64,000 nucleotides of DNA. Source: Caecitellus pseudoparvulus. Lineage: Eukaryota; Protista; Bigyra: Bicosoecida. This document shows, in pieces, positions 9,272 to 36,480 of this stretch; position 1 is the stretch's first letter; each line of letters starts with the position of its first letter. The notes below the pieces were generated by a model. That model did not search any database. It saw nothing but the letters and a program-made list of their open reading frames with translations, and had not been told where the DNA came from. The translations under genes and the position numbers were made by a program. The stretch lies in assembly GCA_965644315.1 (NCBI GenBank), contig CBFFRQ010000180.1:1-64000 (forward strand). The letters are read 5' to 3'.

Positions 9272-9289
9272 ATTATATATGTTTTTATA

Positions 9290-11044: not shown

Positions 11045-11142
11045 ACCTAATAAAAATATAGGGTTTTTATTAAGACGCTCTTAAGGTGTTAAATAAAAAA
11101 GTAAAAAACAAAAAATAAGAGACAAAAATAAAAAACTAATTT
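11045..11142 (+). pseudogene. Decayed remnant of the 155-aa gene of element A
   Basis: GACGCTCTTAAGGTGTTAAA...AAGAGACAAA (from 11074) aligns to GACGCTCTCAAAGGTGTTAAA...AAGAGACAAA (from 1642); start, promoter and 3' part are missing. Confidence 0.55.
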
Positions 11143-11176
11143 TAAATATATTTTCATAATGTTTATAAAAATATAT

Positions 11177-11638: not shown

Positions 11639-11669
11639 ATATCATGCTTTAGAAAATAATTTTAAAGAA

Positions 11670-12734: not shown

Positions 12735-12772
12735 TAATAATATATATATATTAATATATTATTATTGATTAT

Positions 12773-13330: not shown

Positions 13331-13561
13331 ATATATTATATATATTTAGAATATTTTTTTTTTAAATTATATTTTATATTTAAATAAATTAGTTTTATAA
13401 AAAATTTTATCTAGGATATTATATATATCAAGATGTAATTTAAAAATTATTTCAAATCGATTTGAGTTGTCAATGAGCCATTTTCCATTATATTATATTA
13501 TATAATTGTATTTTTTATTGAATACATTATTTTTTTATAAATATTAATTATCAATTAATAA

Positions 13562-14101: not shown

Positions 14102-14130
14102 TATATATATTAATATAAATAATTATCTTA

Positions 14131-14454
14131 AAACCCTTTTAAAATGTGAGAGAATGTTTTTTATTATATATTCGCACACACTCCACGCACTTTGTAGGAT
14201 TCAGGGTTAAGGGATTAAGGGATTAAGGGATTAAGTGATAAGGGTTATATTAAATTTAGGGTTATATTATATATGAATAAGTGATATTGAATGAATCTTT
14301 TTATTTTGGCTTTTCGTCTCCTTTGATTGTTTCTGGAATAGGTAGATTGGATGGATGCTTGATTGCTTCAATTTTATTTTGATTGATTGTTGATGAAGTG
14401 TTAAGAAGAGATTTAAAAAAAATATATATATATATATTTATTATATTTTTTATA
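14131..14454. repeat. First piece of element B right terminal region (probable TIR)
   Basis: Aligns to A from 5713 up to ...TTATATTTTTTATA, where H1 is inserted. Confidence 0.75.
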
Positions 14455-14581
14455 CTAGAAGACCTAGATCGCCGCCTAGCGCGGCTCACAACACCAACAA
14501 CGGCCTGGCCATTATGTGTTGGTGTTGGGTCTGGCACAGACCACTGATCAAGGTTCAGATCAAGGACTTGAGAAGTGCATT

Positions 14582-17500
14582 TTAAACCAGTCCCTTACGT
14601 CGGCACATGTCCAGAAAAGCAGAGCTTGACACCTTCAGTTCTGCCAAAAAGTCTTGAAGTCGTTTGGGCCAAACCGACGTCGTTGGGTACTCTGCTTTGT
14701 ACCGCTCAGCATTGTGTGGTAGAATGATCATGTCGTCCAGGCGGCGGGTCCTGGACAATGCAACAAAGGCGAGGCCATGTGTCGGGACTGCATCCCTGAG
14801 GTCTACGACACAGCGGTCTAAAGTTAGGCCTTGAGCCTTGTGAACAGTCCGAGCTACATCTGGTTTCAAGGCAAGTTGAGAGCGTGTGCACTTGACTGTC
14901 CGTCCGGACTCTTGAACTGTGAACGAAGACGAGACAACAGGTACAGGAATGACTCGAGGAATTCCTTCGAGTACTGAGGGCCCTGAGTAAGGTGGATCCA
15001 TCTGCACCAGTGCTGCAACAACATGTTTGGAAGTGATCAATGACACGTTGCTGGTGATTGCCTGGTTCTTCAGTATGACAGCTTTCAGAATTCCTCTGCT
15101 CCCATTACCGAGACCCGCCTCTACCCACAGGTTCCTGGTCAGGTGAACAGGCATGTCAACTGCCACTGGGAGAGGGTGCATCAGGCCAGCATCTGATGCT
15201 GATGCTTGTGTGGCAGCTTTTCCACCAAATGGATGATGGGCAGATATCACCATCTTGTCGGAGAAGCTTGCCCAAATGGATAAGCTGTAAGCAACAACTT
15301 GCCTGTTGGTCGAGAAGAGATGCATGCACCTTGAAAATTGACGTTCCACCGCTGGTGGAAGCGTGAGAACTGACGGGGATCTGGACTTGATGAGGTCCAC
15401 ATGTCGCTGCGTCGCCTTCTTCTCTCGAATGGCTAGAAGAGCATCTCTCCACTCGGACTGATCATGTGCTTGCTGACGTTCGATCTTAGCTAGTTCAAAC
15501 TTTACAGAAAATAGCGACGTGAAGAGTCCAAGACCATGTTCGTGTTGAATCCTTGACATGCCACTCTGTCTTGAAGGGGTTGTGCCTCTTGTTGTGGAAG
15601 ACAGCAGAGAGGCAGCGGCCACTGGTGGAATTTGGCCGAAGTCCCCCACAAGGACAACATGTAGTCCTCCGAAAGGCTTGTCAACCTGAAATAGCTGCCT
15701 GCAGCGAGCTTCAAGGCGACCAAAAAGCGAGGTCGATACCATGGAGATCTCATCCACGATGAGTATGCTGGGGGCTGTGCCTTCAGAAGACATGGACGCC
15801 TTCAGTCGCTCAGCTGCGAGGCTGTCAAGGACTGGCATGTCTTCATGCCAACTGAGCTGGACTGGGATTTCAAAGGCACTGTGAATGGTCTTACCTGATA
15901 TGTTAATCGCTGCCACTCCGGAAGGAGCAACCCTCAGCACTTCTGACTGCCACCGCGATGAAATGGCGTTGATGGTGAATGACTTTCCTGTTCCTGCTGT
16001 CCCGTGCAAAAGCATTAAGCATTGTGTTCCACTCTCACAGCAGAAATCCAAGTATCGTATGACACACTTCTGCCCAAGATTCAGTTGTTCGAAGGAAACG
16101 TTCTCTTGCTGAAGTCGCCACTCAGGGTGACTTGCCATGTCGTCTTTTTGAAGCTGCAGCCAGCCATTCAGAGAGTTCCTTTCGACAACCGAATCAACCA
16201 AGAGTTCTTGGGCGATGGCCTCTACTTCTGCCGCACATGATCCAGCATGTAGAAGTTCTTCGATTGTGCTTAGTGTGTCACTGACTGTGCTGTCCTGAAA
16301 AGCTGCCGCGAATGCGTCCCCAACATAGTCACTGTCTTCGAGAGGTTGAAGCTTCGGTGGATCAGATCCTGAAAGGAGGCTGTGCTCCGCCCAGCACGCC
16401 TCAGCAAGTCCATGAGACGTGATCAATCGCTGCTGCTGCAGTCGCGTGTCAGACTGCGAAAGTGCAGGTATCTCAGGATGTGCAGCAATGAACGCCTCCC
16501 ATGATTCAATACACGCTTCAGCTCGGTCTTGTTCGCTGCCTTGCAACGGCATATCAAGCTCGGGTCTGCCAACTGCTTCTTCGAAGAAAGCGCCCTCGTG
16601 CCAGCATTTGTACTTTTTGAGCTGGTTCTTGCAATAGTCAGCATACAGAGAGGATCCTTGAGACGCAATAATGCTGGGCCGAAACACAGGGAGAACTGGC
16701 TTGGAAAAGAACGTCTCACTCAAGATAGGAGATCGTGCAACATGGTCTTGAAGAAGTGTGAGGGGAACGCCTTGACCGCCTTTCCATCGCCTGTACAATA
16801 CGTCTCCTACAGTGCGACCTTGATTTCGAGTGCGCAGGCTTGAGTGCCGCTTCATCGGACCAAAGGCATGATCCTTGAAGAACTCAAGCAAAGTTGCATC
16901 CCTAATCCTGGTCAAGAGCTCAATGGAGCTTTCACACTCTGACACCCACTTCATACGTTTTGCATACGCTTGAAGCCCCGTGACCGCGACAGCTTGACCT
17001 TCTTCAGCTATGGTTGACTGTCGAGCTGGCTGAGGCACCTCTTCAGTCCCTCCAATTAGCCCCCCTCTGTTTGTGATCCCCACATTCTCGAAACCAAAAG
17101 TAGAGTACACAATCTTTGCTCCCCTTAGATGATGACTAGCTTCTTGAATGCTAACGTCTCTGGGACTAGACATGCGCATCAGCAGTGATGAAATGGTTCC
17201 CACCAAGGCCGCCCTTCTTGCCTGATCAGGCATGTCTGCGGTCGAGGTTAGCGTGCGGACTCTGTTTGGAGCTGCAAGAACTTTTGGAAGAAGCTCACTG
17301 AATGACAAAGACGGAACTTCTGGCTTGCAACCATACTTTGCAAGGTATGTTATCATGGCTGGCATATCCAACACGAGCTTCACATCAATATTTGCTCTCC
17401 ACGAAGCAAGCATTGTCTTGTTGTAGCCATTCATGAACGGATGATCCCTCTTTGTCTGGAGTTGGGTCTTGAAGAGGGGTGTGTGCACAAGATGTGCATC

Positions 17501-20500
17501 ATCATCAGCATCGTCCGATCCAGGAGAAACTTGTGCTGCAACTCTTACAAACCTCGTGTACGTTTTGTCAACGTTGGGCTGAGGGAAGCCAAAGCGACAC
17601 ACTTCTTCTCCAGATGGAGTTTTGCGGAGGCAGGTTGGTCCATGTTGAGGGTCGTGCCGTTGGACAACCTGGGCAAGAAGACGTATGTCATGATCTGTGT
17701 CTACTGCGGGTAGATGCTCACATGGGTGGTACTCAGGCGGAACTGTGGTTCGTGCATGCGTGGTTGTGATGATCGTGTCTGCATACTGTGCAATCACGCG
17801 TTCGGATTCTTCTCCAGAAGAGACAAGTTGCCCGAGGGTAGCTTTGCGCTCCTCAGTAAGCCCTTCCCCGGCAAGCTCCACCCCTGCCAAGATCCCAAGC
17901 AAGCGCACCTGACTGTGATGATGAAGGTCCGGTGCGCCATGCAAGGCTGCAACTCCATGCACGTGAGGCGCGCCTCTAGACTGCCACTCGTAACGGAGCC
18001 AATGCCATTTGGCATTCAGTGCTCCATAGAGACAGCGGTGGACGAACGCATCCACGCGCATCTGGAAGAGACAGTCTGCAACCATTGGTGCGCGTTCAAC
18101 AGCGGCTGCCCTGTTGGCTATACTATCCTGAATAGAGCTACCAAGATGCTTCAAGAATGTGGGCCATCTCAGATCCGCAGCTGATAATGTAAAGAATATT
18201 GTTGGAAGACCTTGTTGCTCCACCAAAGCTTCCAATTGTTTTCGTTCTGAGGCCATGTGTTCCGCGGAGCCAGGCACTTGAGTTCTAACACGCCGTACAT
18301 GCGCTAGAAGAGATGCCTTGTGCTTGAGAATGTGCTCCTTCAGTGTTGATTCGTGCAGCGGTTCAGATGCATCGTCACCAAAGGCGGACTTTACCACATA
18401 CCTTGCACTTGCAAGCGAACGTTGTCGACGAAGAGTATCAAATGACCAAAGAAGGAAGGATTTGTGTTCCTGAAAAGGCCAACTTTTTTTCCCTTCTGCA
18501 CCAGAGAAGCACACCCAGAGAAGATGCTTCAAGCCAGCCTTCATTGTCACATTCTTTTGGCAAATAGGCCGCGTAAAGTCTCCAAGTCCGTCAGGAAACA
18601 GAGTAGGAAATGCCATGGAAAGAAGACCCGGTGTTGAGCTTTTAGACGCATCAGGCACTGGTTTGTTTATCTCCATCGCCGGCCATTGTTGAGCTGCGAA
18701 GCATGCAGGAACCTCCTGCATGTTCGCTGCTCGGGCAGCAATCTTCGCAACATGATACAAATTTGCTTCTTGGGCAGCTGCTGTTCCCGATATTATCGTT
18801 GATGTGGGTGTGCTTCGTACTGGAAGCTGTCCTCTTGCCCTTGACCTTCGACGTCGAATTTGGGACGGGTTCTGCTTGGTGTCTGCTGGCAGCGTCCTGC
18901 TTTCACTGCCTTGCCATGAATGCTGTGGCGTCGTTGCTGTTGGAGACTCACTTGCTGCCCCTTGTTCTTCATCCCTCTCCACGGTCATGAGTAGCTCAAC
19001 GCCGCTGACACTGGGGCTAAAGGACTTGTCAACGACCAGCTGCCAATGCTCTCCATGATGTAAGAGTCCAACGATGCCATGAGCTCCTACGAGCAGCTGA
19101 GGTGAATCTCCAACAAGCAATGGAGATGAAGGGGAAAGTTTGTCTGTCCATATTCCCTTCCCGTACATACAAACTCGATACTCAGGAATGCTGAACAATG
19201 CCAAAAGATCCGGAGCTTCGTTGAACGTGCCAGGAGTGCACCGACTATCAAGGTACTCCTCCCATGACATGCCATTGACAGTCGCATGAAAGGCGGCCTG
19301 TGCGCTTTCAAGCTCCTGCCCTGTGATCTTCTGGAGCCATCGATGACAATCCTCTCGAACATGCATGGCCTGTATCCCTGATGGATCCAGGTTCCCATTT
19401 CTGATAGCAGCCATACAAAGAAAGAAACAGTCGCCCCCACCTCCGACATCAACTACTGCAAGATGGTATTTCTCAAAGTACTCATGAAATTCTGTAGAAA
19501 AAGGCGGTCCGGATCCTGTCCGACTTCCTGCGTCCATGAAGTGGGTGTGCACAGCGTCCAGGCTTACACAGGAAGCTTGTGACGTTGGCACAGTGGAGAC
19601 AGAGACACTTGGGAGTTTATGTACAACTCTGGGGTCCAGGTACTCTGCAAGATTATCTTCGCTGATTACAATGTCTGAGTACATGGGATTGTGAACCTTT
19701 AGCCAATGCAGCGCAGAAAGAATGCGAGTCGTGCAAACCCATGCCCCAGCTTGTTGTCCTGGACCCCCCTTTATCATGAGCACTGGCAAGTCCTTTGGTA
19801 GCAGGGGAAGTGTGCGCGTGATCTCACCGACATCTTGCCGAATGTTGGTGACGGGGGACGCAAGCAACCTCTGTCCATGACCCCTCCATCGAAGTATCCT
19901 CAGCAATGGGTGGACACGGGCAACGAGCACCTGCTCAACAAAGTTCAAGGCGGACAGAACGTCAGGAGGTTTGCTCGGTACCATGCAATTCTGCTCTGAA
20001 AGCAGCACTGGGTCACGTTGACAGGATTTACAATCTTTCTCACGCTTCCGCTTCCTTCCTCGTCTCTCTCCTGCTCTCACATGGGTTACTCTCGTCTCAC
20101 TTGTGTTCCAGCATGGTCTGCACTCATAGCAGATGGGGCAATGATGAAAGGTAATGCTCTGGAAGTCGTCATGAAACGACTTGAGAGCCTCAGCTTGTTT
20201 GGCGCTTTCCACCTGATCGGAGTCAACAGATACTCCTTGATTTGCTCCTGACGATAGTCGGTGAAAGGCAGCCGCTTCACGTGCAAGCCTTCGTCGATTG
20301 GAGTTTATCTGGTTGATTGACTTCCTTACATGTGCGGGAGATCCTACAGGTGTCAATGTGTGCAGGTACTGCACGGCTGCCGGACCGAACGGTCCTGGCG
20401 CTTCCGTGAGAAACGCATACTTATGTACCCTCTCAGTCGCCCGAGTTTTTGTTTTGCAGCGGAAGATCCCTGGGCTAGTCGTGCCAGCTAGCACCGAACC

Positions 20501-20845
20501 CCTGCTCGTACCTGCAACCCATACACTGCCATCTGACTCAGCACGTTCTGTCCCTGCGGTTACCATATCTATGTACTTACTTCTGATCGCTCGAGCGACA
20601 CAGTCGTTGTACTGCCTGAAGTGCCTAGAAGTACGGGACGCCTTGCCAAAAGGATCGAAGAGACGCACTGCACCAATGCACGGCCCACCATCTGAAGTAG
20701 CGGGCAGCAAGATCAACTGCCCTTCCCCTTCTTCAATCGCTGCTGCAAGGGCAGGACTTGCACGAAAATCAACAACAGTCCATGTTCTGTCACTCCAAGG
20801 CGCGCTTGGGGCGTCTATGACAGCGACCTCTACCTTCAGAGCCAT
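14582..20845 (-). CDS. Helitron RepHel transposase: Zn-finger, OTU-like protease, HUH Rep (Y2), PIF1/SF1 helicase
   Basis: CPICYEC..CKSC; VVDVGGGGDCFF...HWQ (OTU); FPTLFPDG; PTIFFTLSAADLRW; YEWQSRGAPHVHG (HUH); CRFGFP; YLAKYGCK; GTAGTGKS; IVDEISMV; PFGG..VLVGDFGQIPPV; TVHKAQGLTL; FVALSR. Confidence 0.95.
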   Translation of the reverse strand: MALKVEVAVIDAPSAPWSDRTWTVVDFRASPALAAAIEEGEGQLILLPATSDGGPCIGAVRLFDPFGKASRTSRHFRQYNDCVARAIRSKYIDMVTAGTERAESDGSVWVAGTSRGSVLAGTTSPGIFRCKTKTRATERVHKYAFLTEAPGPFGPAAVQYLHTLTPVGSPAHVRKSINQINSNRRRLAREAAAFHRLSSGANQGVSVDSDQVESAKQAEALKSFHDDFQSITFHHCPICYECRPCWNTSETRVTHVRAGERRGRKRKREKDCKSCQRDPVLLSEQNCMVPSKPPDVLSALNFVEQVLVARVHPLLRILRWRGHGQRLLASPVTNIRQDVGEITRTLPLLPKDLPVLMIKGGPGQQAGAWVCTTRILSALHWLKVHNPMYSDIVISEDNLAEYLDPRVVHKLPSVSVSTVPTSQASCVSLDAVHTHFMDAGSRTGSGPPFSTEFHEYFEKYHLAVVDVGGGGDCFFLCMAAIRNGNLDPSGIQAMHVREDCHRWLQKITGQELESAQAAFHATVNGMSWEEYLDSRCTPGTFNEAPDLLALFSIPEYRVCMYGKGIWTDKLSPSSPLLVGDSPQLLVGAHGIVGLLHHGEHWQLVVDKSFSPSVSGVELLMTVERDEEQGAASESPTATTPQHSWQGSESRTLPADTKQNPSQIRRRRSRARGQLPVRSTPTSTIISGTAAAQEANLYHVAKIAARAANMQEVPACFAAQQWPAMEINKPVPDASKSSTPGLLSMAFPTLFPDGLGDFTRPICQKNVTMKAGLKHLLWVCFSGAEGKKSWPFQEHKSFLLWSFDTLRRQRSLASARYVVKSAFGDDASEPLHESTLKEHILKHKASLLAHVRRVRTQVPGSAEHMASERKQLEALVEQQGLPTIFFTLSAADLRWPTFLKHLGSSIQDSIANRAAAVERAPMVADCLFQMRVDAFVHRCLYGALNAKWHWLRYEWQSRGAPHVHGVAALHGAPDLHHHSQVRLLGILAGVELAGEGLTEERKATLGQLVSSGEESERVIAQYADTIITTTHARTTVPPEYHPCEHLPAVDTDHDIRLLAQVVQRHDPQHGPTCLRKTPSGEEVCRFGFPQPNVDKTYTRFVRVAAQVSPGSDDADDDAHLVHTPLFKTQLQTKRDHPFMNGYNKTMLASWRANIDVKLVLDMPAMITYLAKYGCKPEVPSLSFSELLPKVLAAPNRVRTLTSTADMPDQARRAALVGTISSLLMRMSSPRDVSIQEASHHLRGAKIVYSTFGFENVGITNRGGLIGGTEEVPQPARQSTIAEEGQAVAVTGLQAYAKRMKWVSECESSIELLTRIRDATLLEFFKDHAFGPMKRHSSLRTRNQGRTVGDVLYRRWKGGQGVPLTLLQDHVARSPILSETFFSKPVLPVFRPSIIASQGSSLYADYCKNQLKKYKCWHEGAFFEEAVGRPELDMPLQGSEQDRAEACIESWEAFIAAHPEIPALSQSDTRLQQQRLITSHGLAEACWAEHSLLSGSDPPKLQPLEDSDYVGDAFAAAFQDSTVSDTLSTIEELLHAGSCAAEVEAIAQELLVDSVVERNSLNGWLQLQKDDMASHPEWRLQQENVSFEQLNLGQKCVIRYLDFCCESGTQCLMLLHGTAGTGKSFTINAISSRWQSEVLRVAPSGVAAINISGKTIHSAFEIPVQLSWHEDMPVLDSLAAERLKASMSSEGTAPSILIVDEISMVSTSLFGRLEARCRQLFQVDKPFGGLHVVLVGDFGQIPPVAAASLLSSTTRGTTPSRQSGMSRIQHEHGLGLFTSLFSVKFELAKIERQQAHDQSEWRDALLAIREKKATQRHVDLIKSRSPSVLTLPPAVERQFSRCMHLFSTNRQVVAYSLSIWASFSDKMVISAHHPFGGKAATQASASDAGLMHPLPVAVDMPVHLTRNLWVEAGLGNGSRGILKAVILKNQAITSNVSLITSKHVVAALVQMDPPYSGPSVLEGIPRVIPVPVVSSSFTVQESGRTVKCTRSQLALKPDVARTVHKAQGLTLDRCVVDLRDAVPTHGLAFVALSRTRRLDDMIILPHNAERYKAEYPTTSVWPKRLQDFLAELKVSSSAFLDMCRRKGLV

Positions 20846-20922
20846 GCAGTTCCGCTGCGTTCATCTCCTGTGAAAGGATGTGGCTGGCTGACTGTGCTCG
20901 GATCGTGAGTTGACTATGTTGA

Positions 20923-21345
20923 CTAGTCGTCAGTGACAGTTATCACGCCTACTAAAATGTTGAGCAGGAGGGACTGCGCCTGTTCTGAGAGCCGGTCATT
21001 GACATGAAGCTGTTCTGCCGAAATTCCGCAGTCTGCACACGCCATCATAAGCACTGAAAGACGTTTTGGAAGGGCTGAGTTCCTGGCGGAACTTGACAGC
21101 CGATGTCCTGTGCCAGGGAGAGAGATCCATGGCCGATGCACGATGCCCTCAAACTCAAGGGCGGAACGCTGCCTTGCAAAGCCAGTAATCCACACGAGCA
21201 AAGTCCAAGTACCCTGCCTGGTAGCCTCTGCCCCCTTGCCAGTATTGTGGAGACGCAGCCTTCGTTCAAGCGTGTCCTCTTTCGAGTATCCGACGTACGT
21301 TCGCTGATCACTGCCCCGCACGAGTACATACACACAGTACCCCAT
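20923..21345 (-). CDS. GIY-YIG endonuclease, SLX1-like, carried by H1
   Basis: YCVYVL...TYVGYS...RRLRLHN..KGA..T...W.L...ITGF.....ALEFE reproduces the SLX1-type GIY-YIG pattern. Confidence 0.85.
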   Translation of the reverse strand: MGYCVYVLVRGSDQRTYVGYSKEDTLERRLRLHNTGKGAEATRQGTWTLLVWITGFARQRSALEFEGIVHRPWISLPGTGHRLSSSARNSALPKRLSVLMMACADCGISAEQLHVNDRLSEQAQSLLLNILVGVITVTDD

Positions 21346-21519
21346 GGCTGGTGCCGTGCACCAATCCTGCCTGGGTGATGCGAGTCAATCAGCTGACAAA
21401 CTTCAATCAGCTCAGAGGCACATACTCTCGGTTGCCCCACACCACTTTCATCATTGCAAATGTATCACGTGTTGACAAACACGGTAGCCTCAAGACTGTC
21501 CCTCCTCGTACGTGCCATC

Positions 21520-22824
21520 ATGGCCAACGCCAGCCGCGGGGTTCGCGTTCCAAGTGCCCCCCCTGCCAAGGTGGGCAAGTGCACTGCACTCTCCCTCATC
21601 ACCAAGGCCTCGGCTCAGCTATGTGCTGAACCCGGCAACTTTGGTGTCATGGACGCCGACCTCATCGCCAACAAAGGTGGCATCCCACCGCTGAAGACAG
21701 GACAACTTCCGATCAAGGTCGCGGATGTCTTCTTTGAGCCATTAGTCAGTATTCCGCCTCTCTTGATGCTCATCTGTGCCCCACTTTCAGCCTTGCCAAA
21801 GCAGGATGATGCCAACGATACGGCATGCATCGTCATGGATGACATGGCCCTCCTCGGACACCGTTGGAAGACGAAGTACGGTGCAGGTCAAGCTGGCCGG
21901 ACCCCCTATGAGAACTCGCAAGAAGTCCTTCAGTCTCACTGGACCGCCTTCAGTGAGTGCCAGAGAGTTCTATCGGTGACGTGCCAGAGTGAAGTACCTG
22001 TGACGACGTTCCACACTCTTTGCTTATTCGCAGAAACCATTGTTCCCCTGGACCTTGCCGTTAAAGGCCTCCGGGCCACGGCAATGTTGGAGCTTGACAT
22101 TGATGGGGAGAAGCAGACCCCGCCTCCCCTCCCATTTGAAGTTTACGATGAACCACCCCACCAGGACATCGTCAAGACAGTCACCTCGCAGGCGTACCGC
22201 ACCAAGCTCGCCCGTTCGGTTGGCGCAGGCTCCGGCGAGGTAGTGCTGGCCGAGCACCTCTTCACCGGACACGTCGAGGCCGGCGACCAACTATCCCTGA
22301 CGCTTACCCCCACCAAGCTGCCCCCCACCCCTGGCACACGGTCATCGTCGTACGGCTTGGTGCCGTACTCTGATGTAGTTGTGTTTGCCGTGGGGGTGGG
22401 GACCATCGCCGAGACCAGCTTTAAACTGAAAAAAGCTTGGTTGCTCCTCGTCCAAGCCATCCCCAATGCCGCTGAGCACCTCGCGTCCATGCGAGATGCC
22501 AGCGGCATGTCGGGCATTGGCTACGACTTGGCCGCTGGGCTACGCGAGCAGCTGGATGGCATCCAGACAGCTGCTCTTGACCCAGCGACCTACTTGGCAG
22601 CTGCTGAACGGGTGCTTGACGAGCACAAGAAGGTGGCTGAGGCTGCTGAGGCTGTCAAAGCCTCTGTGGCGCCAGCCCCCGTGCGTAGCCCCGAGCTCCT
22701 CGCCCTGGCACAGCAACGACAAAAGCGCCGACGCAGCACGACAGATGCAAGTCAAGCTCCACCTGCAAGCCAAACCCCTACATCTGAAGTTGCCAAGCAA
22801 AGGAGCAAGCGACGTGCTAAGTAG
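21520..22824 (+). CDS. Orphan protein carried by H1, divergent from GIY-YIG/RepHel
   Basis: Long open frame (listed from a non-ATG codon at 21454; MANAS ATG at 21520 chosen, an earlier ATG exists at 21460); basic NLS-like C-terminus (QKRRRS, KQRSKRRAK); no family recognised. Confidence 0.65.
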   Translation: MANASRGVRVPSAPPAKVGKCTALSLITKASAQLCAEPGNFGVMDADLIANKGGIPPLKTGQLPIKVADVFFEPLVSIPPLLMLICAPLSALPKQDDANDTACIVMDDMALLGHRWKTKYGAGQAGRTPYENSQEVLQSHWTAFSECQRVLSVTCQSEVPVTTFHTLCLFAETIVPLDLAVKGLRATAMLELDIDGEKQTPPPLPFEVYDEPPHQDIVKTVTSQAYRTKLARSVGAGSGEVVLAEHLFTGHVEAGDQLSLTLTPTKLPPTPGTRSSSYGLVPYSDVVVFAVGVGTIAETSFKLKKAWLLLVQAIPNAAEHLASMRDASGMSGIGYDLAAGLREQLDGIQTAALDPATYLAAAERVLDEHKKVAEAAEAVKASVAPAPVRSPELLALAQQRQKRRRSTTDASQAPPASQTPTSEVAKQRSKRRAK

Positions 22825-23033
22825 TCAAGAGAAATGCATTGGCTTTGACTCATACGGAGTCAAAATACCAACGCAACCATGAGGGAAGCTCACGCTTCCA
22901 CCACCTCACCACCCGAAGTAAACTCCTTGCGTCCCTTCTCTACCCGAGTGAAACGTAAAATGGTCTACGCTCACAGGATCCGTTAACAGCTTCAAGTGCG
23001 CTGGTAAGACCCCGTACCTCTACCGGCACGTCT

Positions 23034-26000: not shown

Positions 26001-29000
26001 GGCCCCACACTGCACGCTCCGAGGCCCGCCGTGCCCCTGCACAGGTCATGCCAGCTGTCCATCGCCAGGTATGCCACGCCTGCACCACGCTGCATGACGC
26101 CACGGCCCCACACTGCACGCTCCGAGGCCCGCCGTGCCCCTGCACAGGTCATGCCAGCTGTCCATCGCCAGGTATGCCACGCCTGCACCACGCTGCATGA
26201 CGCCACGGCCCCACACTGCACGCTCCGAGGCCCGCCGTGCCCCTGCACAGGTCATGCCAGCTGTCCATCGCCAGGTATGCCACGCCTGCACCACGCTGCA
26301 TGACGCCACGGCCCCACACTGCACGCTCCGAGGCCCGCCGTGCCCCTGCACAGGTCATGCCAGCTGTCCATCGCCAGGTATGCCACGCCTGCACCACGCT
26401 GCATGACGCCACGGCCCCACACTGCACGCTCCGAGGCCCGCCGTGCCCCTGCACAGGTCATGCCAGCTGTCCATCGCCAGGTATGCCACGCCTGCACCAC
26501 GCTGCATGACGCCACGGCCCCACACTGCACGCTCCGAGGCCCGCCGTGCCCCTGCACAGGTCATGCCAGCTGTCCATCGCCAGGTATGCCACGCCTGCAC
26601 CACGCTGCATGACGCCACGGCCCCACACTGCACGCTCCGAGGCCCGCCGTGCCCCTGCACAGGTCATGCCAGCTGTCCATCGCCAGGTATGCCACGCCTG
26701 CACCACGCTGCATGACGCCACGGCCCCACACTGCACGCTCCGAGGCCCGCCGTGCCCCTGCACAGGTCATGCCAGCTGTCCATCGCCAGGTATGCCACGC
26801 CTGCACCACGCTGCATGACGCCACGGCCCCACACTGCACGCTCCGAGGCCCGCCGTGCCCCTGCACAGGTCATGCCAGCTGTCCATCGCCAGGTATGCCA
26901 CGCCTGCACCACGCTGCATGACGCCACGGCCCCACACTGCACGCTCCGAGGCCCGCCGTGCCCCTGCACAGGTCATGCCAGCTGTCCATCGCCAGGTATG
27001 CCACGCCTGCACCACGCTGCATGACGCCACGGCCCCACACTGCACGCTCCGAGGCCCGCCGTGCCCCTGCACAGGTCATGCCAGCTGCCCATCGCCAGGT
27101 ATGCCACGCCTGCACCACGCTGCATGACGCCACGGCCCCACACTGCACGCTCCGAGGCCCGCCGTGCCCCTGCACAGGTCATGCCAGCTGCCCAACGCCA
27201 GGTATGCCACGCCTGCACCACGCTGCATGACGCCACGGCCCCACACTGCACGCTCCGAGGCCCGCCGTGCCCCTGCACAGGTCATGCCAGCTGTCCATCG
27301 CCAGGTATGCCACGCCTGCACCACGCTGCATGACGCCACGGCCCCACACTGCACGCTCCGAGGCCCGCCGTGCCCCTGCACAGGTCATGCCAGCTGTCCA
27401 TCGCCAGGTATGCCACGCCTGCACCACGCTGCATGACGCCACGGCCCCACACTGCACGCTCCGAGGCCCGCCGTGCCCCTGCACAGGTCATGCCAGCTGC
27501 CCATCGCCAGGTATGCCACGCCTGCACCACGCTGCATGACGCCACGGCCCCACACTGCACGCTCCGAGGCCCGCCGTGCCCCTGCACAGGTCATGCCAGC
27601 TGCCCATCGCCAGGTATGCCACGCCTGCACCACGCTGCATGACGCCACGGCCCCACACTGCACGCTCCGAGGCCCGCCGTGCCCCTGCACAGGTCATGCC
27701 AGCTGCCCATCGCCAGGTATGCCACGCCTGCACCACGCTGCATGACGCCACGGCCCCACACTGCACGCTCCGAGGCCCGCCGTGCCCCTGCACAGGTCAT
27801 GCCAGCTGTCCATCGCCAGGTATGCCACGCCTGCACCACGCTGCATGACGCCACGGCCCCACACTGCACGCTCCGAGGCCCGCCGTGCCCCTGCACAGGT
27901 CATGCCAGCTGTCCATCGCCAGGTATGCCACGCCTGCACCACGCTGCATGACGCCACGGCCCCACACTGCACGCTCCGAGGCCCGCCGTGCCCCTGCACA
28001 GGTCATGCCAGCTGTCCATCGCCAGGTATGCCACGCCTGCACCACGCTGCATGACGCCACGGCCCCACACTGCACGCTCCGAGGCCCGCCGTGCCCCTGC
28101 ACAGGTCATGCCAGCTGTCCATCGCCAGGTATGCCACGCCTGCACCACGCTGCATGACGCCACGGCCCCACACTGCACGCTCCGAGGCCCGCCGTGCCCC
28201 TGCACAGGTCATGCCAGCTGTCCATCGCCAGGTATGCCACGCCTGCACCACGCTGCATGACGCCACGGCCCCACACTGCACGCTCCGAGGCCCGCCGTGC
28301 CCCTGCACAGGTCATGCCAGCTGCCCAACGCCAGGTATGCCACGCCTGCACCACGCTGCATGACGCCACGGCCCCACACTGCACGCTCCGAGGCCCGCCG
28401 TGCCCCTGCACAGGTCATGCCAGCTGTCCATCGCCAGGTATGCCACGCCTGCACCACGCTGCATGACGCCACGGCCCCACACTGCACGCTCCGAGGCCCG
28501 CCGTGCCCCTGCACAGGTCATGCCAGCTGCCCAACGCCAGGTATGCCACGCCTGCACCACGCTGCATGACGCCACGGCCCCACACTGCACGCTCCGAGGC
28601 CCGCCGTGCCCCTGCACAGGTCATGCCAGCTGTCCATCGCCAGGTATGCCACGCCTGCACCACGCTGCATGACGCCACGGCCCCACACTGCACGCTCCGA
28701 GGCCCGCCGTGCCCCTGCACAGGTCATGCCAGCTGTCCATCGCCAGGTATGCCACGCCTGCACCACGCTGCATGACGCCACGGCCCCACACTGCACGCTC
28801 CGAGGCCCGCCGTGCCTCTGCACAGGTCATGCCAGCTGTCCATCGCCAGGTATGCCACGCCTGCACCACGCTGCATGACGCCACGGCCCCACACTGCACG
28901 CTCCGAGGCCCGCCGTGCCCCTGCACAGGTCATGCCAGCTGTCCATCGCCAGGTATGCCACGCCTGCACCACGCTGCATGACGCCACGGCCCCACACTGC

Positions 29001-30920
29001 ACGCTCCGAGGCCCGCCGTGCCCCTGCACAGGTCATGCCAGCTGCCCATCGCCAGGTATGCCACGCCTGCACCACGCTGCATGACGCCACGGCCCCACAC
29101 TGCACGCTCCGAGGCCCGCCGTGCCCCTGCACAGGTCATGCCAGCTGTCCATCGCCAGGTATGCCACGCCTGCACCACGCTGCATGACGCCACGGCCCCA
29201 CACTGCACGCTCCGAGGCCCGCCGTGCCCCTGCACAGGTCATGCCAGCTGTCCATCGCCAGGTATGCCACGCCTGCACCACGCTGCATGACGCCACGGCC
29301 CCACACTGCACGCTCCGAGGCCCGCCGTGCCCCTGCACAGGTCATGCCAGCTGCCCATCGCCAGGTATGCCACGCCTGCACCACGCTGCATGACGCCACG
29401 GCCCCACACTGCACGCTCCGAGGCCCGCCGTGCCCCTGCACAGGTCATGCCAGCTGCCCATCGCCAGGTATGCCACGCCTGCACCACGCTGCATGACGCC
29501 ACGGCCCCACACTGCACGCTCCGAGGCCCGCCGTGCCCCTGCACAGGTCATGCCAGCTGCCCATCGCCAGGTATGCCACGCCTGCACCACGCTGCATGAC
29601 GCCACGGCCCCACACTGCACGCTCCGAGGCCCGCCGTGCCCCTGCACAGGTCATGCCAGCTGCCCATCGCCAGGTATGCCACGCCTGCACCACGCTGCAT
29701 GACGCCACGGCCCCACACTGCACGCTCCGAGGCCCGCCGTGCCCCTGCACAGGTCATGCCAGCTGTCCATCGCCAGGTATGCCACGCCTGCACCACGCTG
29801 CATGACGCCACGGCCCCACACTGCACGCTCCGAGGCCCGCCGTGCCCCTGCACAGGTCATGCCAGCTGTCCATCGCCAGGTATGCCACGCCTGCACCACG
29901 CTGCATGACGCCACGGCCCCACACTGCACGCTCCGAGGCCCGCCGTGCCCCTGCACAGGTCATGCCAGCTGTCCATCGCCAGGTATGCCACGCCTGCACC
30001 ACGCTGCATGACGCCACGGCCCCACACTGCACGCTCCGAGGCCCGCCGTGCCCCTGCACAGGTCATGCCAGCTGCCCATCGCCAGGTATGCCACGCCTGC
30101 ACCACGCTGCATGACGCCACGGCCCCACACTGCACGCTCCGAGGCCCGCCGTGCCCCTGCACAGGTCATGCCAGCTGTCCATCGCCAGGTATGCCACGCC
30201 TGCACCACGCTGCATGACGCCACGGCCCCACACTGCACGCTCCGAGGCCCGCCGTGCCCCTGCACAGGTCATGCCAGCTGTCCATCGCCAGGTATGCCAC
30301 GCCTGCACCACGCTGCATGACGCCACGGCCCCACACTGCACGCTCCGAGGCCCGCCGTGCCCCTGCACAGGTCATGCCAGCTGCCCAACGCCAGGTATGC
30401 CACGCCTGCACCACGCTGCATGACGCCACGGCCCCACACTGCACGCTCCGAGGCCCGCCGTGCCCCTGCACAGGTCATGCCAGCTGCCCATCGCCAGGTA
30501 TGCCACGCCTGCACCACGCTGCATGACGCCACGGCCCCACACTGCACGCTCCGAGGCCCGCCGTGCCCCTGCACAGGTCATGCCAGCTGCCCATCGCCAG
30601 GTATGCCACGCCTGCACCACGCTGCATGACGCCACGGCCCCACACTGCACGCTCCGAGGCCCGCCGTGCCCCTGCACAGGTCATGCCAGCTGCCCATCGC
30701 CAGGTATGCCACGCCTGCACCACGCTGCATGACGCCACGGCCCCACACTGCACGCTCCGAGGCCCGCCGTGCCCCTGCACAGGTCATGCCAGCTGCCCAT
30801 CGCCAGGTATGCCACGCCTGCACCACGCTGCATGACGCCACGGCCCCACACTGCACGCTCCGAGGCCCGCCGTGCCCCTGCACAGGTCATGCCAGCTGCC
30901 CATCGCCAGGTATGCCACGC
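23034..30920. repeat. Tandem array, 103-bp unit, ~76.6 copies, inside H1
   Basis: Unit GAGGCCCGCCGTGCCCCTGCACAGGTCATGCCAGCTGTCCATCGCCAGGTATGCCACGCCTGCACCACGCTGCATGACGCCACGGCCCCACACTGCACGCTCC; three recurrent variant positions. Confidence 0.98.
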
Positions 30921-30963
30921 TTGTCCTGCATGTTGCATGCATGAGCCGGACAGAGTGCTTTGT

Positions 30964-31167
30964 AACCTGCGTGGAGCTCTGGAAAGACCTCTCCTTCCTG
31001 TGGCAGTTCCGCAGTCACGCTTACCGACGCACCGTGCCCTTGCACAGGTCGCGCCAGCTGTACAATGCCAGCTGAGTCATGGTAATCTTTATGTTTTATG
31101 TATGAGGTGGATAGAATGCTTCGCAACCTGCGTGGAGCTCTGGAAAGACCTCTCCTTCCTGTGGCAG
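30964..31167. repeat. 43-bp direct repeat pair
   Basis: AACCTGCGTGGAGCTCTGGAAAGACCTCTCCTTCCTGTGGCAG at 30964-31006 and 31125-31167. Confidence 0.85.
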
Positions 31168-31348
31168 AGCGTGCGTCAGTTCCAGGTGTCTTCGCTGCAG
31201 GGCAGGACATAGCCTTTGGCGGACACACGAAGTGAATGAGGTGTCAAAGGATCATGTAGTGTACTGGTTTTGTTGTGTCTTTTGTAGGTGACTGCGCGCT
31301 CAAGAAGAGTATTGAGTGCAATGAGATTTGCGTTTCAACCGAAACGTT

Positions 31349-32004
31349 CACACCATCACGTCCGAGAGATCTCCTCAACGACACCGATTACACCGACACG
31401 AACGGCACCAGTAGGCTCAAATGCATTCATAATGACCCTGTGTATGCTTGGAAAGCATGTCCTTGCCGGCGCGCCGCAGGGACAGGCGCCCAAAGTGCCA
31501 GGTCGCCGCGATAAGTCCACACCATCACGTCCGAGAGATCTCCTCAACGACACCGATTACACCGACACGAACGGCACCAGTAGGCTCAAATGCATTCATA
31601 ATGACCCTGTGTATGCTTGGAAAGCATGTCCTTGCCGGCGCGCCGCAGGGACAGGCGCCCAAAGTGCCAGGTCGCCGCGATAAGTCCACACCATCACGTC
31701 CGAGAGATCTCCTCAACGACACCGATTACACCGACACGAACGGCACCAGTAGGCTCAAATGCATTCATAATGACCCTGTGTATGCTTGGAAAGCATGTCC
31801 TTGCCGGCGCGCCGCAGGGACAGGCGCCCAAAGTGCCAGGTCGCCGCGATAAGTCCACACCATCACGTCCGAGAGATCTCCTCAACGACACCGATTACAC
31901 CGACACGAACGGCACCAGTAGGCTCAAATGCATTCATAATGACCCTGTGTATTCTTGGAAAGCATGTCCTTGCCGGTGCGCCGCAGGGAGAGGCGCCCAA
32001 AGTG
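31349..32004. repeat. Tandem array, 169-bp unit, ~3.9 copies, inside H1
   Basis: Unit starts CACACCATCACGTCCGAG at 31349, 31518, 31687, 31856. Confidence 0.95.
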
Positions 32005-32985
32005 GGCGGGAGCGGAAATGGATGGTGTACCCAGCGCGCCGGTATAACGCAGGCTCCATCGCGCGCCCGCGCACCGGACCGGTTTAGATGTTTTTATCTA
32101 TCTTTTAAACCCCCAGGTATGTAACCCCAATTTATGATTCAGCTTGCATGCACGCCTGCTGGGTGCTGCCGTGCACTGGCTTGCCGAAAGTGATGGTGTG
32201 GCGTAGCGCCTAGCAGAATGCATTCCAGAGGACGAGGCTGCGGCTATGTAGGTTTTTAATAGCGCTTAACACCCTGGCAGTGCTCCCTTAAGCTCTAGAT
32301 CGCTCTTTTCGTACCTCCACATTGACCTCACAATGAGTCTCAGCGGCTCGACTGGCCGGGGGCTGCCATTGCACGGGCCAGGAAATGGGCCATGTTGGGG
32401 CCTTTGAACCCGGATATCTCGGCCCGTAATACGTCTACAGATCCAAGCTCACGTGGACATGCCTAAATCACTCCGATGCGTTGACGATTAAAAGGACAGG
32501 ACCGTGTGATGCGTTTTGGTCTCTCTACAGCTGGATTCATGGCTGAAAAAATCAACTTTTTCAAATTCGCCAAGACAAAAGAGGCCCAAAATCTGATCTT
32601 TGACCGGCTATGGCTCCAAGGGAAATGCGTTTCAGATTATGAGACTTCGTACACATGGTAAACATTATAGGGCCCACCTATGATATGTGTTCAGGTTTAG
32701 ATTTGATTTTTAGCTTGGGCTCCATGACCAGTTTTGCACCCAAAATGCACAGTTTAAGGCTGTGGCCCGTTCACAATTTTGAAACGCATGACAAAATCAA
32801 GAACCTGAACTACGAATGTTGCCTTACAGCCCTTGGTCGAGTTTAGTGCTCAGAGATCTACAAACGGCTCAGGAATCGCGCTTGTAAGTTAATATTTTTG
32901 GGGACCACCTCCTCATACTCCTCTTTCAGACTTGACGTCTGGGGATGCTCGACCAACTCGCCCTACGGGCTGTGGTCTGTGCCAA

Positions 32986-33125
32986 TTATTTCTATTTATT
33001 GTAGTGATAACCCTTAAGATAACACTTATAAAATAGTAGTAAATAGTAGTATAAAAATGGTATCAAGGGTTTATAAGGGATTGTTTTTGTAGGGGTAGTG
33101 TTTAATAAGTGTTATATATCTATTA
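32986..33125. repeat. 140-bp middle piece of element B terminal region, between the two Helitron 5' ends
   Basis: TTATTTCTATTTATTGTAGTGATAACCCTTAAGATAACACTTAT... aligns to A ~6028-6167. Confidence 0.9.
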
Positions 33126-36100
33126 TTGGCACAGACCACAGCCCGTAGGGCGAGTTGGTCGAGCATCCCCAGACGTCAAGTCTGAAAGAGGAGTATGAGG
33201 AGGTGGTCCCCAAAAATATTAACTTACAAACGCGATTTCTGAGCCATTTGTAGATCTCTGAGCACTAAACTTGACGAAGGGCTGTAAGGCAAAATTCGTA
33301 GTTCAGATTCTTGATTTTGTCATGCGTTTCGAAATTGTGAACGGGCCACAGCCTTAAACGATGCATTTTGGGTACAAAACTGGTCATGGGGCCCAAGCTA
33401 AAATTCAAATCTAAACCTGAACACATATCATAGGTGGGCCCTATTATGTTTACCATGTGTACGAAGTCTCATAGTCTGAAACGCATTTCCCTTGGAGCTA
33501 TAGCCGGTCAAAGTTCAGATTTTGGGCCTCTTTTGTCTTAGCGAAAATGAAAAAGTTGATTTTTTCAGCCTTGAATCCAGCTCTACAGAGACTGAAATGC
33601 ATCGCGCTGCTCTTTCCTTCTACACATCAACGCATCATAGTACATCGAGCATCTCCATGTGAGCTTGGTTCAGTTGGCGTAATACGAGCTGAGATATTCC
33701 GGTCCAAAGGTCCCAAAATGGCCCATTTTCTGGCCCGTGCAATGGCAGCCCCAGGCCAGTCGAGCCCCTGAGACTCATTGGAAGGCCCGTCTGGTGAAAC
33801 GACAGGAGCCATCTAGAGCTCCAGGGAGCGACACCAGCCTGATCAGCGACATTGAAAACCTACATAGCCGTACCCTCGTGCTCAGGAATGCATTCTACTA
33901 GGCGCTAGGCCACACCATCACTTTGCGCGCGCCAGTGCACGGCAGGCGCCAGCAGGCATGTATGCATGCCGAATATCGAGTTGAGGTTGAAACCATGGAT
34001 GTTTCATGGGTAAATTAGAGTATCGGAATCGGTCCAGCGTGCGGGCGCGCGATAGAGCCTGCGCTATACCGGCGTGCTCGGCACACCATCCATTTCCGCT
34101 CCCGGCCACTTTGAGCACCTATCACTGCGGCGCGCCGCCGTAGAATCGAAATCCAAGCATACACACGGTCATTGTACCTAATACGTACCTCAGAATGACT
34201 GTCTAAATTACAAACCTTGTCGCCGTTCAGCAGATCCAGAGGGTGGGTTCGCACGCCAGTGCCGAGGGGCTCGAATATGAGCATGCACCGAAACTCGGCA
34301 TCTACGAACCGCACAAATGTGAAACTTGTGGAGCTCACGTAACTAAATCTCAAACCTAGACATCCGAAGCCCCAGCAAGGATAAATGCGTATTACGCGCG
34401 AAATCGACACTTTAAGTGTAATTCACGCAATCACTAAAACACGCATATATCCACACACACTGCGTTTCAAACCCCTACACTTTACACACATTGCACACAT
34501 TATGTAGGCTAGGCTAGTATATCCTTGAAGGAAAACCAAAGCTTCACACTGAAGCATAATAAGCACATTCAGGTCAAGACAGGACACAAGCTATTTGCTT
34601 CGGTTTTGCCTCAATTCTACATCACAAGGGTCTTCCCAGACACCGTTTCGACCATGGCCCACTGGCGGAGGTCCATGACCACCGGACAGTGTTCTTGGCT
34701 GAGGCCCAGACGGCATCCTGTCGCCGTGAGACCTCCGCCCGTCCGACCCGAGCCTCCGACACGGGCGCACCCGGTCATGTCCACCTTTCACACCATGATC
34801 ACACCTGAATCACGCAGTGCGGCACATGGCCCACTGGTGGAGGTCCATGACCACCGGACAGTGTTCTTGGCTGAGGCCCAGACGGCATCCTGTCGCCGTG
34901 AGACCTCCGCCCGTCCGACCCGAGCCTCCGACACGGGCGCACCCGGTCATGTCCACCTTTCACACCATGATCACACCTGAATCACGCAGTGCGGCACATG
35001 GCCCACTGGCGGAGGTCCATGACCACCGGACAGTGTTCTTGGCTGAGGCCCAGACGGCATCCTGTCGCCGTGAGACCTCCGCCCGTCCGACCCGAGCCTC
35101 CGACACGGGCGCACCCGGTCATGTCCACCTTTCACACCATGATCACACCTGAATCACGCAGTGCGGCACATGGCCCACTGGTGGAGGTCCATGACCACCG
35201 GACAGTGTTCTTGGCTGAGGCCCAGACGGCATCCTGTCGCCGTGAGACCTCCGCCCGTCCGACCCGAGCCTCCGACACGGGCGCACCCGGTCATGTCCAC
35301 CTTTCACACCATGATCACACCTGAATCACGCAGTGCGGCACATGGCCCACTGGTGGAGGTCCATGACCACCGGACAGTGTTCTTGGCTGAGGCCCAGACG
35401 GCATCCTGTCGCCGTGAGATCTCCGCCCGTCCGACCCGAGCCTCCGACACGGGCGCACCCGGTCATGTCCACCTTTCACACCATGATCACACCTGAATCA
35501 CGCAGTGCGGCACATGGCCCACTGGTGGAGGTCCATGACCACCGGACAGTGTTCTTGGCTGAGGCCCAGACGGCATCCTGTCGCCGTGAGACCTCCGCCC
35601 GTCCGACCCGAGCCTCCGACACGGGCGCACCCGGTCATGTCCACCTTTCACACCATGATCACACCTGAATCACGCAGTGCGGCACATGGCCCACTGGCGG
35701 AGGTCCATGACCACCGGACAGTGTTCTTGGCTGAGGCCCAGACGGCATCCTGTCGCCGTGAGACCTCCGCCCGTCCGACCCGAGCCTCCGACACGGGCGC
35801 ACTCGGTCATGTCCACCTTTCACACCATGATCACACCTGAATCACGCAGTGCGGCACATGGCCCACTGGCGGAGGTCCATGACCACCGGACAGTGTTCTT
35901 GGCTGAGGCCCAGACGGCATCCTGTCGCCGTGAGACCTCAGCCCGTCCGACCCGAGCCTCCGACACGGGCGCACCCGGTCATGTCCACCTTTCACACCAT
36001 GATCACACCTGAATCACGCAGTGCGGCACATGGCCCACTGGCGGAGGTCCATGACCACCGGACAGTGTTCTTGGCTGAGGCTCAGACGGCATCCTGTCGC

Positions 36101-36344
36101 TGTGAGACTCATAGTTTACAACTTGCAAACACTTGTTTGGTAAAGAGTTTGACTCAGCATAGCTCCTTTTGGAATTCGTTGCTTGTTTTGGAAAGGCAAG
36201 CTGTTGGAGTCAAGGCACGATCTCAGGCCCAAGTCTAGATCTAGGTCTTGGTCAATGGTCTGTGCCAGACCCAACACCAACACAGAACGGCAAGCCCGTT
36301 GTTGGTGTTGTGAGCCGCGCTAGGCGGCGATCTAGGTCTTCTAG
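33126..36344 (+). mobile_element. Non-autonomous Helitron-family element H2 (3,219 bp), same family as H1, opposite orientation
   Basis: Starts TTGGCACAGACCAC after A(33125), ends TTCTAG before T(36345); ~1.1-kb 5' region and ~115-bp 3' region similar to H1; 12-bp subterminal IR (33127-33138 vs 36256-36267); no RepHel. Confidence 0.9.
34653..36108. repeat. Tandem array, 172-bp unit, ~8.5 copies, inside H2
   Basis: Unit starts CATGGCCCACTGG at 34653, 34825, 34997 and so on. Confidence 0.96.
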
Positions 36345-36480
36345 TAAATATATCTAAGAATGGTATTTATAGATTTTATCTAAGAAAACTATATATAAAT
36401 ATATCTGTTTTTAGTCGCAAACTGCGGCAGCAGTTGAGACATATCGCTCATACATACATTTATGTATGTATTGTCCCCCT
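36345..36480. repeat. Last piece and terminus of element B
   Basis: Aligns to A 6168-6303 including TCTGTTTTTAGTCGCAAACTGCGGCAGCAGTTGAGACATATCGCTCATA; ends TTGTCCCCCT. Confidence 0.9.

Follow-up and report, generated by a model that had tools for sequence, protein, structure and literature searches.

Two Helitron-like elements of one family, H1 and H2, are inserted head-to-head, 140 bp apart, in one end of an endogenous virophage of the protist Caecitellus pseudoparvulus. The window analysed here is a stretch of 64,000 nt (contig CBFFRQ010000180.1 of assembly GCA_965644315.1, positions 1 to 64,000), which contains two virophages, A and B; only one end of each falls inside it. The paired insertion, in the end of virophage B, is real and unusual. 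The explanation favored here, with a probability of about 0.5, is that one low-copy family uses virophages as an AT-rich sink and that its copies cluster, without the involvement of a factor that recognizes virophages.

The GC content of the window is 17–33% over the first 14.4 kb, jumps to about 50–70% at position 14455, falls again over the 140 bp at 32986–33125 and at 36345–36479, and is 57–73% in the host DNA beyond. The uninterrupted end of virophage A aligns to virophage B as three abutting pieces, 14105–14457, 32985–33126, and 36345–36480, that are 86% identical to A overall (Table 1). Excision of 14455–32985 and 33126–36344 restores an end that is collinear with A, as the initial annotation had proposed. 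Compared with the uninterrupted end of A, all four Helitron junctions are clean A|T joins with no target-site duplication, and the flanks of the H1 site are identical between A and B at 25 of 25 bases on each side. Read on the strand of each element, the targets are TAA|TAT for H1 and TTA|TAA for H2. The cut register is ambiguous by one base, and T|A can be written equally well for A|T from the sequence alone. The two 5' ends face each other across the 140-bp spacer. The earlier description of two same-family elements, head-to-head and at A|T sites without duplication, is therefore exact in its coordinates and junctions. Contigs of four sequencing runs (X1, X3, X5, and X8), of which X1 or X3 is possibly the window's own source, were compared over 36112–38600. 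Read-contig support at the junctions covers junction 4 alone, which is crossed by one X3 contig with 49 + 30 letters, one short of the 31-letter bridging rule.

H1 and H2 share a 5' stretch of 1048 bp (85% identity) and a 3' stretch of 116 bp (90% identity), and the remainder is unlike. Both elements start with TT and finish with CTAG, and both feature an inverted repeat (13 bp in H1 and 12 bp in H2), one copy of which lies 1 bp inside the 5' end and the other 77 bp inside the 3' end. Hairpins are predicted from sequence in the last 75 bp of each element, without a shuffle control. Because the elements are alike at their ends only and carry different tandem arrays, they are distinct and neither is a simple copy of the other; each also has its own clean joints, and the reading of two separate elements stands. 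The identity between 31938–32985 and 33126–34173 is 100% over the first 100 bp, 93–96% up to 400 bp, and 69–85% beyond, a gradient that may reflect constraint or recent conversion at the 5' end. An origin of H2 as a local deletion copy of H1 is ruled out by the 85% identity and the different arrays. Three H2 open reading frames (ORFs) of 129–151 aa were scanned and gave no Pfam match at E < 0.1.

Table 1. Features of the virophage and Helitron locus (window coordinates)
Feature	Position	Strand	Basis
Visible part of virophage A; uninterrupted end 5686–6302	1..6302	.	
Body of virophage B: C-terminal half of major capsid gene, 632-aa ORF, DUF5754, PDDEXK nuclease, rve integrase with chromodomain	6303..14104	.	
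Inner piece, non-coding end of virophage B (inner border approximate)	14105..14454	.	83% to A 5686–6030
H1, autonomous HLE2-type Helitron, 5'-TT ... CTAG-3', 18,531 bp, at A|T	14455..32985	-	junctions, ends, coding content
H1 3' region: 13-bp inverted repeat ending 77 bp from end, then predicted hairpins, CTAG	14455..14570	-	
RepHel ORF, 2087 aa, uninterrupted	14582..20845	-	Pfam, motif alignment
GIY-YIG nuclease ORF, 140 aa, directly upstream of RepHel	20923..21345	-	Pfam PF01541 E 6.8e-11
454-aa ORF, antisense to H1, no assigned family	21460..22824	+	
Tandem array within H1, 103-bp unit, 76.7 copies	23026..30920	.	
Tandem array within H1, 169-bp unit, 3.9 copies	31349..32004	.	
H1 5' region common with H2 (85%; first 100 bp identical), 5' asymmetric inverted repeat 1 bp from end	31938..32985	-	
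Spacer, 140-bp piece of virophage B end between both 5' ends	32986..33125	.	90% to A 6027–6168
H2, non-autonomous family member, H1-like termini, 3,219 bp, at A|T	33126..36344	+	junctions, ends
Tandem array within H2, 172-bp unit, 8.5 copies	34653..36108	.	
Outer piece of virophage B end; host DNA from 36480	36345..36479	.	89% to A; variable flanks, virophage-free allele

The composition of the target sites would account for insertion into virophage DNA. Both targets fit the hexamer T-W-A|T-A-W, and the flanking DNA is 8% and 14% GC over ±25 bp. Virophage DNA holds 371 such hexamers in 14.7 kb (25 per kb), whereas 27.5 kb of host DNA, which is 63% GC and features no 50-bp window under 38% GC, contains none. 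Plain AT steps are only 5-fold denser in virophage DNA than in host DNA, and none of the approximately 755 host AT steps has flanks as AT-rich as the insertion sites at any of three window sizes. Among the virophage hexamer sites the two insertion sites are unremarkable, falling at the 12th and 36th GC percentile at ±25 bp. The Helraiser transposon is described as preferring AT steps within ~20 bp of AT-rich DNA (PMC4778049). Since the hexamer and comparably AT-rich flanks are absent from these 27.5 kb of host DNA, an ordinary AT-rich preference would by itself send the family into virophages. Both sites lie at a hexamer that is abundant in virophages and absent from the host DNA covered, and two insertions do not establish an enrichment beyond base composition.

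In the favored explanation, the autonomous H1 and the non-autonomous H2 likely landed successively in the same virophage end. RepHel, the protein encoded by H1, likely needs an A|T step within strongly AT-rich DNA, which in the GC-rich host is likely supplied by virophages and by little else. By analogy with Helraiser, RepHel would nick the 5' end, peel off one strand, and stop at the 3' hairpin and CTAG, and the copy would then join a melted AT-rich target without duplication. H2 would be the later arrival, mobilized in trans, as the contig depths described below suggest. The 140-bp spacing needs the extra assumption of a bias toward an existing Helitron, as reported for maize, where Helitrons insert near other Helitrons according to a review (PMC12477314). 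The outcome would be a de facto virophage sink, with the inserts probably being passengers in an already crippled provirophage.

Several points weigh against this explanation. An AT-rich preference leaves the 140-bp spacing at the same end unexplained, and AT-richness gives the terminal region no advantage, as it contains 10–13% of the candidate sites for 8.4% of the visible virophage DNA. The chance of a second insertion within 140 bp is 0.0006–0.003 for a pure AT sink and 0.006–0.04 under targeting of the terminus, which is about 11-fold higher; these values are rough and assume 13–75 ends and 20-kb elements. Both chances are low, and a neighbor effect is therefore likely. However, Helraiser is described as inserting without local hopping (PMC4778049), and H2 is not a copy of H1. 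The two insertion sites themselves supplied the hexamer, and the host composition comes from 27.5 kb alone. Depths of contigs do not give copy numbers, and any family member with a 3' end less than 85% identical would escape the comparison of samples. The location of H1 in X1 was not recovered, which weakens the order with H1 first.

The copy number and the order of insertion were assessed from other samples. Parts of 13000–22800 are present in fifteen runs from 8 studies, and the family, with RepHel intact and its copy number very low, is found in several marine metagenomes. No RNA dataset is listed among the holders of the region, which carries no implication for expression. In X3 the H1-type 3' contig has a depth of 26.3 and the H2-type contig a depth of 24.1, with long host contigs at 43–46, and the two 3' contigs merge into a 79-bp contig that crosses junction 4 at a depth of 34.9. 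The predicted depth is 35.4 for two copies and 45.7 for three. As the merged depth fits the two-copy prediction, the family in X3 appears to consist of exactly two copies, those of this window, each at about haploid depth. The virophage-end depth in the same run is about 1,800 (~75 ends). X1 features an H1-type end only (47.3), with no H2-type end and no junction-4 contig, and a 57-bp contig of this run matches the same virophage/host joint with 28 + 29 letters. The depth bin of X1 is fully explained, with 138.8 observed and 138.7 accounted for. Because X1 appears to have the virophage/host joint yet is without H2, the comparison suggests that H2 arrived later than H1. The H1 contig of X1 ends 2 letters beyond CTAG, at the point of divergence of the two known flanks; a fork leading to two or more sites may be the cause, and nothing is based on it. 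Contigs with virophage sequence reaching the H2 site have depths of 300 + 216 in X1 and ~1,800–2,000 in X3.

The X5 metagenome contains the virophage-free host allele and two Helitron 3' variants with depths of 11.2 and 7.2, the flanks of which were not recovered, and its virophage end (8.1; host 20.1) is empty at the H2 site. In the comparison of empty sites between samples that had been suggested, X1 appears to be without H2 at the same virophage joint. The X5 variant with a depth of 7.2 is a third form of the family 3' end (36195–36325), with 4 differences and a different upstream sequence. X8, which is of low depth, has no cover over the Helitron or the virophage end. The ratio of virophage-end depth to single-copy depth (36345–36479) is roughly 13 in X1, 75 in X3, and under 1 in X5.

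Both virophages encode an rve integrase with a chromodomain (2482–3567 in A and 11670–12734 in B), and they are 82–95% alike over their common genes. The capsid fragment of B is of the virophage type (MCP_V20_C, PF22031, E 9.9e-42), and 81 of 81 longer capsid homologues carry PF21915 and PF22031, the best being 58% identical. A penton, a packaging ATPase, and a maturation protease were not identified in the window, which shows each virophage partly. Since the capsid frame of B begins just past the end of A (6302/6303) and keeps residues ~271–590 of a 590-aa relative, A has most likely inserted into the capsid gene of B, which would make it a virophage nested in a virophage. The position 36479/36480 is the terminus of B, based on variable flanks and a virophage-free host allele that joins there. 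The insertion is polymorphic: the virophage-free allele at 36480 is present in three of the four runs (X1, X3, and X5), and other flanks follow the same virophage end in X1 and X3. The initial annotation had placed the Helitrons in a terminal repeat; the terminus is supported, and with a single end visible the inverted repeat and the inner border are not. Near its end A features two tandem paralogues of one ORF (4340–4876 and 4903–5682), of which B has one (13562–14101). A 274-aa virophage ORF at 53–877 and 9597–10421 bears a DPPY motif. This motif may be that of a DNA adenine methyltransferase, with no Pfam or NCBIfam support.

A rather unlikely alternative is that the family recognizes virophage DNA or the terminal repeat itself, by means of RepHel, the GIY-YIG nuclease, the 454-aa ORF, or a virophage end-binding protein. 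Under such targeting the family would spread between hosts in reactivated virophages, as proposed for Ngaro types 1 and 2a. Both of the copies inferred for X3 sit in a virophage end, and the spacing is about 11 times likelier than in a pure AT sink. There is also a precedent in the Ngaro retrotransposons, of which 91% of type 1 lie inside endogenous mavirus-like elements (EMALEs) with 4 of 20 sites in terminal inverted repeats (TIRs) (PMC8547959), and Paramecium Helitrons have been suggested to target telomeric repeats (PMC13085455). The persistence of the family in marine metagenomes at very low copy with an intact RepHel fits this alternative as well. However, the two insertions are not independent, and targeting alone would still place them in the same copy of the end only about 1 time in 13 to 1 in 75. 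Most virophage ends are empty, as the X1 and X3 depths at the H2 site demonstrate, H1 is 18.5 kb long, and the capsid gene of the virophage copy that hosts it is split. The earlier proposal that the family specifically prefers virophage DNA, or the virophage terminus, is therefore not established by two insertions, since an AT-rich preference already predicts landing in virophages. A proto-Helentron-like element specialized on virophage termini, kept at one or two copies per host and either traveling between host cells in reactivating virophages or disabling them, is likewise doubtful. Such an element would recognize the AT-rich terminal repeat, perhaps in a single-stranded form that virophage excision or replication exposes, and perhaps with the GIY-YIG nuclease as a helper.

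Database searches also bear on targeting. RepHel was not found in IMG/VR by four scans, which are weak negatives run without a positive control: the 5' end pattern gave 0 matches, the exact RepHel peptides were confirmed in 0 of 3 candidates, a degenerate Rep motif-2 pattern gave 0 matches, and in an alignment search of 12 of the 64 parts of IMG/VR the 80 loci retained of 423 confirmed were all helicase-only, with no Rep match by tblastn. The capsid fragment, likewise run without a positive control, was confirmed in 0 of 4 candidates. In JGI metagenomes the 3' pattern gave 0 matches and the 5' pattern gave 20, all of them (20 of 20) due to chance with no similarity past the seed, and these are weak negatives too. 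Phage records contain 411 RepHel matches, and 20 of 20 among the matches listed fall in the helicase part.

It is improbable that the family has no preference beyond the A|T step, in which case the locus would be a rare coincidence and the copies of other strains would lie in host DNA. The window was selected for being unusual, and X5 combines its two Helitron 3' variants with little virophage end, both of which would suit a coincidence. However, AT steps are only 5-fold denser in virophage DNA, and by depth the virophages probably make up a few percent of the genome, so that two of two insertions would be rare. Both sites carry the hexamer that is absent from the 27.5 kb of host DNA, and the 1001-bp end contig of X5 could hold a Helitron at the H1 site in the 865 unseen letters upstream.

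There is similarly little to recommend the import of the pair within an incoming virophage, or its formation in one compound event by template switch or recombination at the facing 5' ends, with a later loss of H2. No H2 donor copy is visible in X3, and the first 100 bp of H1 and H2 are identical while other shared parts are 69–96% identical per 100 bp. Conserved termini are, however, expected from transposase binding, and H1 and H2 each retain both termini intact and have separate clean A|T joints. X1 appears to have the same integration site without H2, for which a later gain is simpler. An assembly artefact of repeats is very improbable: the locus does hold three tandem arrays, an inverted repeat of 1 kb, and a virophage end that is present in many copies, with a read-contig check at junction 4 alone, but the four A|T joints are precise to the base and give back a collinear end, the contig at junction 4 crosses it with 49 + 30 letters, and the depths fit one copy each.

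The single low-copy family in an AT-rich sink remains the favored explanation. Packaging of copy B is unlikely given its split capsid gene, its nested virophage, and the 21.7 kb added to its end; virophage genomes are reported to be 20–30 kb (10.64898/2026.07.28.741278). Hitch-hiking on virophage replication, which the initial annotation had suggested, is accordingly unlikely for copy B because the capsid gene is split and the inserts add 21.7 kb. For hitch-hiking, intact virophages carrying short members of the H2 kind would be required; none were seen, and the searches of IMG/VR and JGI metagenomes, which are weak negatives, also yielded none.

RepHel features a DUF6570 domain (residues 277–400, E 1.2e-19), a Helitron_like_N domain (791–965, PF14214, E 3.6e-24), and a PIF1 helicase domain (1588–1745, PF05970, E 3.6e-29). 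The catalytic motifs are an HUH motif at H961/H963 and a Y-x-x-K-Y motif from Y1167, and H961, H963, and Y1167 are invariant in 20 of 20 aligned sequences, which were drawn from a set of 29 homologues. Motif 2 of RepHel reads W-L-R and G-A-P-H; several homologues have W/Y/F-x-R, and the signature of type 2 Helitron-like elements (HLE2) is F/Y-x-R and G-S-P-H. A C-terminal apurinic/apyrimidinic (AP) endonuclease is absent, with no Exo_endo_phos match among 10 Pfam families. DUF6570 is also present in 20 of the 28 other homologues of the first set and in 10 of the 12 best that were scanned of 150 listed. Among the matches listed, the closest proteins are ≤42% identical to RepHel, and a protein identical to it is present in a Logan contig (P0001). 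Helraiser matches RepHel best in the helicase (E 4.4e-17), more weakly than plain Pif1 helicases do. Motifs seen by eye at residues ~468–600 resemble those of an OTU-like cysteine protease and were not reported by Pfam. The 454-aa ORF gave no Pfam match at E ≤ 0.01, no NCBIfam match, and no usable Atlas match; its Atlas recognition score of 2460 is within the range of known families.

The elements belong to the rolling-circle Helitron superfamily based on a RepHel with HUH, tyrosines, and a Pif1 helicase, insertion without duplication, and predicted 3' subterminal hairpins. Of the traits of type 1 (HLE1), they share the 3' CTRR end (CTAG) and the A|T target; the 5' end is TT rather than TC, and the transposase is not Helraiser-like without DUF6570. 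A canonical HLE1 is ruled out by the TT start, the DUF6570 domain, and the inverted repeats, and a Helentron is ruled out by the absence of a C-terminal AP endonuclease match. HLE2 is marked by DUF6570 and short inverted repeats, with T|T as the target (PMC11417382). The RepHel of H1 features DUF6570, and both elements have asymmetric inverted repeats within 8–17 bp, with the 5' copy within 0–4 bp of the end; however, both sites are A|T (T|A in the alternative register), and the 3' repeat lies upstream of the hairpins, 77 bp from the end, whereas 20–30 or 38–60 bp is reported for HLE2. The proto-Helentron of Phytophthora is described with a 5' TT, a 3' CTAG, A|T insertion without duplication, and no endonuclease (PMC4067079). 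H1 and H2 have the same ends and target and no duplication, and H1 encodes an HLE2-type RepHel without the endonuclease. The reverse layout of inverted repeats, found in the HELIANO re-annotation of proto-Helentron, is not present here. Because the layout is forward, the elements are not assigned to the proto-Helentron family, and their likeness to Phytophthora rests on described features. By their sequence they are classified as HLE2 with proto-Helentron-type ends and not as a member of the Phytophthora family. The name Helitron given at first thus holds for the rolling-circle family and not for the canonical type, as the HLE2 affinity and the proto-Helentron-type ends had been missed.

The host DNA encodes a DHX36-like helicase (56641–61116, minus strand) with 95% identity to a database entry for Symbiodinium sp. 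KB8 and 41–48% identity to Cafeteria proteins. Cafeteria burkhardae is rejected as the host because of the low identity to its DHX36-like proteins; the host is an intron-poor, GC-rich eukaryote, probably a heterotrophic marine protist. The match to Symbiodinium sp. KB8 would be consistent with an intron-poor, GC-rich heterotroph contaminating the Symbiodinium sp. KB8 assembly.

Endogenous virophages can protect protists against giant viruses, and anything that breaks or rides virophage ends bears on this defence. If the AT-sink reading is true, a general rule would be that in a GC-rich host the choice of AT-rich targets makes virophages the main transposon sink, which could also account for part of the pattern of Ngaro and Mutator-like elements (MULEs). 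If specialization on termini were true, the family would act as a hyperparasite, a rolling-circle element exploiting the parasite of a virus. The intact and apparently single-copy RepHel makes target choice open to assay. Additionally, the locus provides a second lineage with proto-Helentron-type ends, which bears on the relationship between HLE1 and HLE2 termini.

Among known elements, H1 and H2 most resemble proto-Helentron-Pi, which was compared by description. Both have TT/CTAG ends, A|T insertion without duplication, a long intronless HLE2-type RepHel with DUF6570 and no C-terminal endonuclease, and short inverted repeats of about 12 nt (PMC4067079, PMC11417382). H1 and H2 differ in their forward HLE2 layout, as HelenPi572 resembles the reverse layout (PMC11417382), in the GIY-YIG cargo of H1 compared to SET/TIR, and in having two copies rather than 25. 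No proto-Helentron beyond Phytophthora is reported in the portions of the literature found. The HLE2 elements (Helitron2/Helentron) share DUF6570, asymmetric inverted repeats, internal tandem arrays, and non-autonomous partners (PMC3627910, PMC11417382, PMC4067079), and a GIY-YIG cargo has a precedent in HelenSM92, a family from Sphagnum (PMC11417382). In contrast to the HLE2 elements as described, H1 and H2 have an A|T target instead of T|T, a CTAG end, and a 3' repeat 77 bp from the end, and the RepHel of H1 features G-A-P-H instead of G-S-P-H and no AP endonuclease.

Transposons inside endogenous virophages have been reported before, and the further parasitic layer claimed by the initial annotation is not new in kind, as Ngaro (PMC8547959) and MULE and LINE elements (10.64898/2026.07.28.741278) are described there. 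No published case of a Helitron insertion resolved within a virophage came to light, in a search that is thin on subscription papers. The main text of the Ngaro study contains 0 occurrences of the word Helitron (PMC8547959). The Halocafeteria preprint names Helitrons once as associated with viral regions, and its text resolves no Helitron insertion within a virophage, although its supplements may show one (10.64898/2026.07.28.741278). The virophages and polinton-like viruses of Halocafeteria seosinensis are similar to the present case in featuring MULE and LINE insertions and nested virophages (10.64898/2026.07.28.741278). Helitron-like elements are also described in viral DNA in the case of the insect-virus Helitrons (Hel-2), for which the virus is a proposed shuttle; however, these are non-autonomous and reside in large insect viruses, not virophages (PMC4344730). 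The closest parallel in setting is Ngaro, which colonizes the EMALEs of Cafeteria burkhardae, including one EMALE with two adjacent Ngaro1 insertions (PMC8547959). In both cases a transposon of a GC-rich host lies within AT-rich virophages that carry an rve integrase, their terminal regions included. Ngaro is, however, a tyrosine-recombinase retrotransposon whose preference was determined on 80 copies and is linked to ORF1 (PMC8547959), whereas the elements described here are rolling-circle transposons present in two copies. The locus thus adds the rolling-circle class to the transposons known inside virophages.

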